From a virus (lineage: Duplodnaviria > Heunggongvirae > Uroviricota > Caudoviricetes): a stretch of 13,469 bases of DNA. The position numbers and the translations under genes are program-made. How positions within the stretch are numbered: the first letter of the stretch is position 1; each line of letters starts with the position of its first letter. The notes below the pieces were generated by a model. The model did no database searches and was not told the DNA's origin. It saw only the letters and a program-made list of their open reading frames with translations. Below, one piece after another: positions 6,060 to 6,600 of this stretch. The DNA lies in the IMG/VR virus record IMGVR_UViG_2548876855_000021; one strand, 5' to 3'.

Positions 6060-6600
6060 CCGGCAGGCAGCCGTGCAGAAAGGGAGAGTACATAATCTCG
6101 GACTAGCAAACGGCGCGCGGAACGCTCATCGCAGGAGACAGTGCGAAGCATACAGATGCGGGGGTGAGTGTCAGCACGGCGGATTGCGGCAAACACAAAG
6201 ACATATTGCGGGTGTGACGGGGTGAGGATTGTAGCCATGATGGCAGCCTCCAATAAGTAGCGGTTATTGCTACCACCGGAAACGCCAATTTCACTGGTGG
6301 CAGCCCGAACGGGGTTGGCGTAACCGGCCTTATTGGAAACCGGCCAGCCCGAAGGCTGCCCCGCCCGGACTACCATTATCTCGATAGAACCATGGTGTAA
6401 GCATAAACACCACAGCCCTGAAAATGGTTGTGCCTGAGCTACGACGTAAAAAAAGACGCAAGGGGCGTCAATTGTCGCCAATAAGTTATACGGAACGCCA
6501 ATTCCGGCTGCCGATTTTGCGACAGCGGAAAAACTATACCTGGAAATGACGACAGTAAGCAAGCCAGAATAAAGGTATTTAATGTATGCAGGTATCATCA
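6060..6600 (-). other. GC-rich, apparently non-coding leader between the alpA-like gene and the small early ORFs; candidate structured or immunity RNA region
   Basis: The only ORF here (track 6044..6601, 185 aa) has an implausible composition. The region contains long-range complementary segments, e.g. ggcagcctccaataag (6242-6257) against cttattgg...aaggctgcc (6331-6362). Confidence 0.25.

Follow-up and report, generated by a model that had tools for sequence, protein, structure and literature searches.

A probable P4-type immunity RNA module inside the eta/kil reading frame of a P4-like satellite of Escherichia coli O157:H7

Introduction

Does a half-kilobase interval lying next to an alpA-like gene carry an immunity system made of RNA, or is it simply part of a protein-coding gene? 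The question is raised by a DNA stretch of 13,469 nucleotides (nt) from a Caudoviricetes virus (IMG/VR record IMGVR_UViG_2548876855_000021; the whole stretch is called here the window), in which positions 6,060 to 6,600 had been proposed by an earlier note to hold an immunity RNA of the type known as CI in P4, together with its target sequences. The P4 immunity system has been known since the 1990s. The present analysis leads to a similar view: judging from the sequence and by analogy with P4, the interval would be, with a probability of about 0.9, the immunity module that maintains lysogeny in a P4-like satellite, encoded on the minus strand. Within the known system the module is an ordinary member, although it has a specificity pair of its own, unlike that of P4. 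Coordinates refer to the window, and the elements of the module are all on the minus strand.

RNA elements of the leader

Two of the checks that had been suggested for the proposal, a covariance-model search of Rfam and an alignment with the P4 immunity region, came out in its favour. At gathering thresholds, Rfam gave two matches in the region, C4 (RF01695) and isrK (RF01394), both on the minus strand, and the region proved colinear with P4 (see below), which together support the identification of a P4-type CI immunity RNA module with its targets. The parts of the leader are the following:

6533..6562, minus strand: putative constitutive promoter of the PLE type (TTGCTT, 18 nt, TATAGT), assigned by homology, predicted start near G6526
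6449..6526, minus strand: seqA/IsrK-like leader RNA (Rfam RF01394 isrK, 71.9 bits, threshold 50)
6386..6419, minus strand: conserved hairpin of 13 base pairs between t1 and the CI RNA, seen in the minimum free energy (MFE) fold and outside all Rfam models
6293..6380, minus strand: CI/C4 antisense immunity RNA (Rfam RF01695, 84 bits, threshold 45, E = 1e-15, model positions 1-87 of 87)
6247..6288, minus strand: seqC target region, defined by box words and pair counts over 66 loci

For comparison, 120 loci were gathered from one-genome-per-species contigs by means of a 23-nt pattern of the invariant CI core. Of these, 106 could be parsed, from many Enterobacterales and some other Proteobacteria, and 66 distinct leaders were aligned and their base pairs counted against the proposed structure.

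The CI RNA has the architecture of the C4 family, that is, a closing stem (17 base pairs) enclosing two internal hairpins, with the antisense boxes placed in a single-stranded loop and linker. The MFE fold of the C4 segment coincides with the Rfam consensus structure (-50.8 kcal/mol, z = -4.9 on the minus strand), and its closing stem is 100% paired in 66/66 aligned leaders, with GC/AU and UA/CG exchanges. The 316-nt leader as a whole also folds better than expected (z = -5.4, minus strand), which bears out the suggestion that the region is structured. RNA of the plus strand was considered and discarded, as its fold is no better than that of shuffled sequences (z = -1.2) and all Rfam matches are on the minus strand. 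Weak Rfam matches to snoU105B, CRISPR-DR22, IS009 and adapt33 were likewise dismissed, being far under their own thresholds.

Upstream of the CI RNA, the IsrK-like leader begins with two 5' hairpins, continues as a single-stranded spacer and ends in the intrinsic terminator t1, a GC hairpin (stem 6469..6455) plus U7 that was also picked up by a terminator scan. Counted against the Rfam isrK structure (unconstrained MFE folding of the leader gives another structure), the helices of this leader are 84-100% paired over the 66 loci, a range also given as 99.6-100%; in t1 every pair of the stem is kept (100%), and its basal pair appears as CG or GC. The putative promoter precedes the leader within a block (GGCTTGC...TAyAGT) that is conserved with P4 and other loci.

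The hairpin at 6386..6419 shows changes on both sides at 11/13 pairs over the 66 loci, and at its site P4 and two relatives are longer by 30-39 nt. In P4, RNase P and PNPase take part in processing the leader transcript into the CI RNA. The hairpin may be a processing or stability determinant of the CI precursor, and possible hints of CI processing are this conserved upstream hairpin and a tRNA-acceptor-like stem followed by ACCA.

Antisense boxes and their targets

The CI RNA exposes two boxes, a' CCAAUAAG (6336..6329) in the loop of hairpin 2 and b' ACGCCAA (6321..6315) in the single-stranded linker, and each of them finds its exact complement twice in the same transcript, one pair lying upstream and the other downstream. 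In the upstream pair, b1 UUGGCGU (6501..6495) occupies the loop of the second isrK hairpin and a1 CUUAUUGG (6485..6478) lies in the IsrK-like leader. In the downstream pair, within seqC, b2 UUGGCGU (6288..6282) is followed by a2 CUUAUUGG (6257..6250), which overlaps the Shine–Dalgarno (SD) sequence GGAGG of kil (6251..6247). The seqC region also contains a small hairpin (6274..6257) at the position of P4 t4, and an anti-SD segment (UUCC here, CUCC/UUCC over the loci) just after b2 that pairs with the GGAG of the kil SD. This last pairing is almost fully kept over the 66 loci, with 3 non-standard cells in 1 of the 4 pairs, and its variation is one-sided.

The complementary segments reported before exist where they had been placed: on the plus strand, ccaataag (6250-6257) is complementary to cttattgg (6329-6336), ggcagcc (6242-6248) to ggctgcc (6354-6360), and ccggaaacgccaa (6276-6288) to ttggcgtaaccgg (6315-6327) at 11/13 positions. 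They belong, however, to minus-strand RNA, and while the downstream targets (seqC) had been seen, the upstream set (seqA, 6478-6501) had been missed. As to word frequency, CTTATTGG would be expected 0.59 times in the 13.5-kb window and has 3 copies, each of them inside the module (two minus-strand targets and one complement within the C4 RNA). TTGGCGT also has 3 copies in the window, in the same 2+1 pattern, a number that alone is not significant (1.71 expected).

Decisive evidence that the complementarity goes beyond chance is provided by co-variation across loci. Among the 106 parsed loci the a' loop takes 43 forms and the b' linker 14; they occur in 60 combinations and co-vary with both sets of targets. 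Exact complements of at least 7 nt between cognate partners were found for a' in 83% (upstream) and 91% (downstream) of the loci, and for b' in 98% at either site, whereas non-cognate pairings reach at least 7 nt in only about 0.5-6%. Such co-variation at three sites can only be explained by RNA–RNA pairing. The a'/b' pair of the window recurs in loci of Phytobacter, Kosakonia and Kluyvera.

The CI-core pattern also matched contigs labelled as Actinomycetes, Vagococcus and Clostridiales (L013, L061, L039, L064, L045 and L082). The matches in Actinomycetes could not be parsed as C4 and probably arose by chance in GC-rich DNA. The Vagococcus and Clostridiales contigs carry complete modules of the enterobacterial type, which suggests contamination or mis-binning.

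A translatable frame across the RNA genes

The interval had been described as about 0.5 kb without a credible open reading frame (ORF). This part of the description did not hold, because a minus-strand ORF of 185 codons covers the whole interval and contains in frame a second, shorter gene:

6044..6601, minus strand: eta-like ORF of 185 codons that takes in the promoter, both RNA elements and kil (ORF call, Prokaryotic Genome Annotation Pipeline (PGAP), Pfam)
6044..6238, minus strand: kil/Icd-like gene, 64 amino acids, nested in frame in eta (NCBIfam phage_ICD_like, 66.9 bits, cut-off 25)

The start codon of eta (6601..6599) overlaps the TGA of the preceding vis gene (6600..6598) in the arrangement ATGA. 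Amino acids 22-132 of eta match the Pfam family Phage_ASH (PF10554; 4.8e-30), and correspond to nt 6206-6538, that is, to the promoter, the leader, the CI RNA and seqC. In PGAP/RefSeq, the entire ORF appears as 'host cell division inhibitor Icd-like protein' and no non-coding RNA is listed, and the same stretch is named 'ash family protein' in other E. coli genomes. The NCBIfam model phage_ICD_like covers solely the last 64 codons of eta, which correspond to kil (ATG at 6238..6236, preceded by the SD described above); in most relatives kil has 63-65 amino acids. On the PLE-type transcript, kil would be the first gene to be translated.

The two parts of the frame evolve differently. Entropies at codon positions 1, 2 and 3 are 0.66, 0.60 and 1.23 in kil, a coding signature, whereas in the eta frame they amount to 0.36, 0.42 and 0.42 over C4 and to 0.84, 0.78 and 0.63 over seqC. 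The RNA-coding part of eta is therefore free of amino-acid constraint. The frame itself is nevertheless preserved, being free of stops from the leader to the kil ATG in 88% of the loci, as opposed to 0% and 14% for the other two frames. The length of this interval is congruent modulo 3 in 59/66 loci by virtue of compensating insertions and deletions. All loci with a b' linker shorter by 1 nt (11/11; alignment column 249, about 6322 in the window) have a 2-nt deletion about 30 nt downstream, right behind the C4 RNA (columns 277-280, about 6292), and other changes of 1 or 2 nt in the leader are compensated inside the leader too. Spacer lengths between the end of the T-run and the C4 core that are not multiples of 3 were set aside as an artefact of differing T-runs.

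In about 10% of the loci (L041, L046, L079, L089, L092 and L102), one nucleotide is missing between the SD and the ATG of kil, which places kil out of the eta frame, and in another locus (L113) a 1-nt deletion in the spacer has the same result. In these loci eta would stop near the start of kil, and they may represent decaying copies or a variant based on termination and reinitiation.

A preserved eta frame with kil nested in it belongs to the P4 model. According to a paper that summarises Forti 1999, the start of P4 eta lies before the internal promoter, and its translation is coupled to that of the alpA homologue; only transcripts from the late promoter allow eta to be translated, and this translation prevents termination, while kil is a truncated form read from the constitutive transcript (PMC10111431). 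Since a conserved ORF is part of that model, its presence here is no refutation of the RNA interpretation. A conserved protein-coding gene in the interval had been named in advance as an observation that would speak against an immunity RNA, and in the literal sense eta/kil is such a gene; yet the RNA reading is left intact, because in P4 the CI and seqA elements also lie within eta (PMC10111431) and because the RNA-coding part of the frame lacks a codon-position signature.

Comparison with P4 and other C4 systems

The closest known relative in organisation is P4, which has the same order, strand logic and spacing. Positions 6044-6858 of the window are colinear with P4 8180-8961 (69% identity over 743 nt), in an alignment that spans vis (ORF88) through the old "cI protein" ORF. 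The same three Rfam models match P4 in the same order, with 74.9 bits for C4, 60.8 for isrK and 44.1 for c4-a1b1. The order of the P4 immunity architecture was found on one strand, namely vis, the putative promoter, seqA, CI, seqC, kil and the alpha primase, and so was the nesting of kil in frame within an eta that starts upstream of the internal promoter. In both elements the eta ATG overlaps the vis stop codon, the CI scaffold is common, and the start context of kil (GGAGGCUGCCAUCAUGGCUAC) is identical. The two eta products align from end to end with 57% identity, although that of P4 has 199 codons against 185 here. The differences concern mainly the boxes, a' being CCAAUAAG here and CCUGUGAA in P4, and b' ACGCCAA here and UUCUCAC in P4, with the targets changed to match. 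In addition, P4 has 39 nt more between t1 and CI, and epsilon follows its kil where the window has a 73-amino-acid ORF (PMC2669165). A similar relation reportedly exists between P4 and the retronphage phiR73, a P4-like element that Sabbattini et al. are said to have described in 1996 as keeping the CI scaffold with different specificity determinants in seqB, seqA and seqC.

The immI region of P1 and P7 carries an RNA of the same C4 family and clan, also with two boxes and two flanking pairs of targets (a1/b1 and a2/b2), and its downstream target overlaps the ribosome-binding site of an Icd-family gene, as observed here. It controls an antirepressor operon (icd, ant), however, whereas the present module lies within eta, is preceded by vis and is followed by satellite replication genes. 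An IsrK-type leader with a terminator, followed by a C4-type RNA, is also found in the isrK-STnc1160-orf45-anrP region of Gifsy-1 (Salmonella) and in the isrK-C4-ant region of Shiga toxin (Stx) phages, although these modules control antirepressor genes of lambdoid phages. The kinship has been recognised before: seqA is a structural homologue of IsrK, IsrK and STnc1160 being homologues of seqA and CI (PMC4825925), and P4-like prophages carry an IsrK/C4 pair equivalent to the seqA/CI RNA of P4 (PMC3632133, PMC4825925).

In Stx1a (L124) and Stx2a (L125) phages and in phage 2H10 (L126), isrK-C4 stands directly upstream of ant/regulatory genes, with C4 scores of 78.8-82.8 bits. The kil start context GGAGGCUGCCAUCAUGGCUAC is present as well in the one Stx-phage copy that was read (L124). 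The Stx1a/Stx2a copies have a' CCGUUGAC and b' ACUGCGAA or AGUGCAAA, other than those of the satellite, and phage 2H10 shares b' ACGCCAA with the window and differs in a'. Cross-talk of the satellite with the C4 modules of Stx phages was considered, and none is predicted with the examined copies, as the boxes differ.

The element and its genomic context

About 1.2 kb around the module is 100% identical in about 300 complete E. coli genomes, mostly O157:H7, and the window is, as this identity and its gene content indicate, a P4-like satellite prophage of E. coli O157:H7. The genes that accompany the module on the same strand are:

6598..6858, minus strand: vis/alpA-like gene, 86 amino acids (Pfam Phage_AlpA 1.2e-19; aligns with P4 ORF88/vis)
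5826-6047, minus strand: ORF of 73 amino acids at the position of P4 epsilon (ORF call)
5503-5826, minus strand: DUF5375 gene (Pfam and NCBIfam)
3156-5546, minus strand: alpha-type primase-helicase (Pfam and NCBIfam)

The vis/alpA-like gene is the first of the late (PLL-type) transcript, and the genes at 3156..6047 form the downstream part of the controlled operon, ordered as ORF106 and alpha in P4. The 73-amino-acid ORF had no family match in the Pfam/NCBIfam scans. Those scans of the window detected in the primase the domains and families Zn_Ribbon_Prim, Toprim, D5_N and P4-family primase, and elsewhere Psu (4.8e-42), Ogr_Delta and Phage_AlpA. In one annotated O157 genome, the order is primase-helicase, DUF5375, a hypothetical gene, "Icd-like protein" and a helix-turn-helix regulator, while the other strand carries a "septation initiation protein", Psu, Ogr/Delta, several cargo genes and a tyrosine integrase, the latter just outside the right end of the window. 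The gene set expected of a P4-like satellite is accordingly present: an alpha-type primase-helicase, hijacking genes of the Sid/Psu/Delta type, AlpA/Vis and a tyrosine integrase.

The satellite is probably Sp2 of strain Sakai, in view of the fit with the literature on the P4-like prophage of that strain. O157 Sakai has one P4-like prophage, Sp2, which is unusual in having an ogr homologue, and the epsilon homologue is located in the P2-like Sp13 and not in Sp2 (PMC2669165). Two features of the window agree with this remark, namely the family-less ORF at the epsilon position and the transactivator at 9098-9370 (plus strand), a short Ogr-like zinc finger of 90 amino acids, unlike the 166-amino-acid Delta of P4. 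The small RNA Esr41 of O157 was considered as a possible identity of the RNA described here and rejected, since it is reported in SpLE1 and not in this element.

The protein at the Sid position (7792-8544, plus strand, 250 amino acids) has a weak Psu-domain match. Between the Ogr/Delta gene and the integrase, the cargo at about 9780-13372 (minus strand; 10981-15201 in L003) comprises an AAA family ATPase, the middle component and a protein of an 'ABC-three component system' and hypothetical proteins. It could be an island of anti-phage defence genes that occupies the variable hotspot commonly seen in P4-like satellites.

Proposed mechanism and alternative explanations

If the module works as in P4, the PLE transcript would give rise, by processing, to a stable CI RNA about 70-80 nt long, which would pair in trans with seqA on nascent transcripts, raise termination at t1 and in this way autoregulate its own synthesis. 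In P4, CI–seqA pairing reportedly has this effect on t1, as Briani is said to have found in 2000. Pairing of CI with seqC would in turn mask the kil SD and lead to termination before the replication genes, so that the alpha primase operon would be kept off in the lysogen. This termination would occur at the t4-like site and, in a Rho-dependent manner, within the kil RNA, which is C-rich and would be left untranslated. The first 40 nt of the kil RNA contain 16 C and 5 G and are rut-like (Rho-loading-like). When the late promoter fires, ribosomes coupled from vis would translate eta through the leader, which would make the transcript insensitive to immunity. P4 immunity does include a block of kil translation followed by Rho-dependent termination (PMC10111431).

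Several points weigh against this interpretation. The parts, their order, their pairing potential and their evolutionary maintenance are what the sequence reveals, and the mechanism is carried over from P4, where CI-dependent premature termination reportedly involves t1, t4 and timm. The promoter was placed solely through its conservation with P4, and a consensus promoter scan of the region did not find it, because its -35 hexamer TTGCTT matches the consensus at 3/6 positions. The c4-a1b1 model (RF03163) matches 6539..6487 with 44.6 bits in a permissive search, under its threshold of 46.7; P4 itself has the same shortfall (44.1 bits), and the segment overlaps the isrK match. The predicted duplexes of the cognate CI with seqA (-26.5 kcal/mol) and seqC (-37.9 kcal/mol), like those of P4 CI with the targets of the window (-17.8 and -20.9 kcal/mol), leave intramolecular structure out of account. 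Moreover, Sp2 may be partly defective and its module perhaps of little present use, because its P2-like partner Sp13 is devoid of most functions (PMC2669165). Given the different specificity boxes and the weaker duplex energies calculated for P4 CI, the element is predicted to be heteroimmune to P4, with no cross-immunity between the two.

The simplest competing explanation is that the interval is a plain protein-coding gene (Ash/Eta/Icd-like, 185 amino acids) and that the RNA matches and complementarities are mere by-products of it. The ORF does span the interval, PGAP annotates it as one coding sequence, the Phage_ASH match is strong, and the frame is stop-free in most relatives with its length kept modulo 3. 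A gene selected for its product would be expected to behave over C4 and seqC as the nested kil does, but the third-position excess is missing there. Neither would protein constraint explain variable boxes that change together at three sites, stems that covary and remain 100% paired in a strand-specific fold, or a promoter and an intrinsic terminator inside the ORF. As P4 translates the equivalent frame to prevent termination (PMC10111431), the conservation of the frame supports the P4 model, and the explanation by protein coding alone appears highly improbable.

Only marginally better placed, and still improbable, is the view that the module operates without antisense-enhanced termination at t1/t4, either in the mode of Gifsy-1 IsrK, in which the leader trans-activates translation of a downstream mRNA, or in that of P1 immI, in which C4 purely represses translation of an Icd-like gene with secondary polarity. 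The isrK model indeed fits the leader better than that of P4 (71.9 vs 60.8 bits), the overlap of a2 with the kil SD and the conserved anti-SD pairing are what translational control would predict, Kil belongs to the Icd family like P1 Icd, and IsrK and STnc1160 are structural homologues of seqA and CI (PMC4825925). Nonetheless, the genes around it (vis, eta/kil, alpha primase) are those of a P4 satellite and not of an ant/anrP antirepressor operon, and the entire region is colinear with P4. Furthermore, these modes and P4-type immunity are not mutually exclusive, considering that P4 also blocks kil translation before Rho-dependent termination takes place (PMC10111431).

Significance

As curated Rfam models already detect the module above threshold, the identification of a P4-type immunity module leaves little matter for discovery. 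It does bring to light regulatory RNAs of an O157 prophage that are hidden in the RefSeq/PGAP annotation, where they are shown only as "Icd-like protein". The box sequences, in addition, predict with which elements cross-immunity should occur, since they are shared with the Phytobacter, Kosakonia and Kluyvera loci and not with P4 or the examined Stx phages.

What is mildly new concerns the family level alone, namely the combinatorial diversity of the boxes and the translated frame that crosses the RNA genes without peptide constraint. A literature search found no systematic survey of box diversity or of frame maintenance over RNA genes, and the main census of P4-like satellites does not mention the immunity RNA. 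The family-wide co-variation and the maintenance of the frame offer a clean illustration of overlapping constraints imposed by RNA and by translation. A more general proposition, to which roughly even odds are given, is that the CI/C4 RNAs of P4-like and related elements constitute a combinatorial specificity system with independently assorting boxes, in which each change is mirrored at two distant targets, and that the same DNA is kept translatable without selection on the peptide over the RNA genes. The Phage_ASH family appears to model RNA genes within an ORF that is conserved just for being translated. Should the proposition be true, it would offer a clear example from nature of an ORF maintained for the sake of being translated while overlapping two structured RNAs, and Phage_ASH would be largely a translation of RNA genes.

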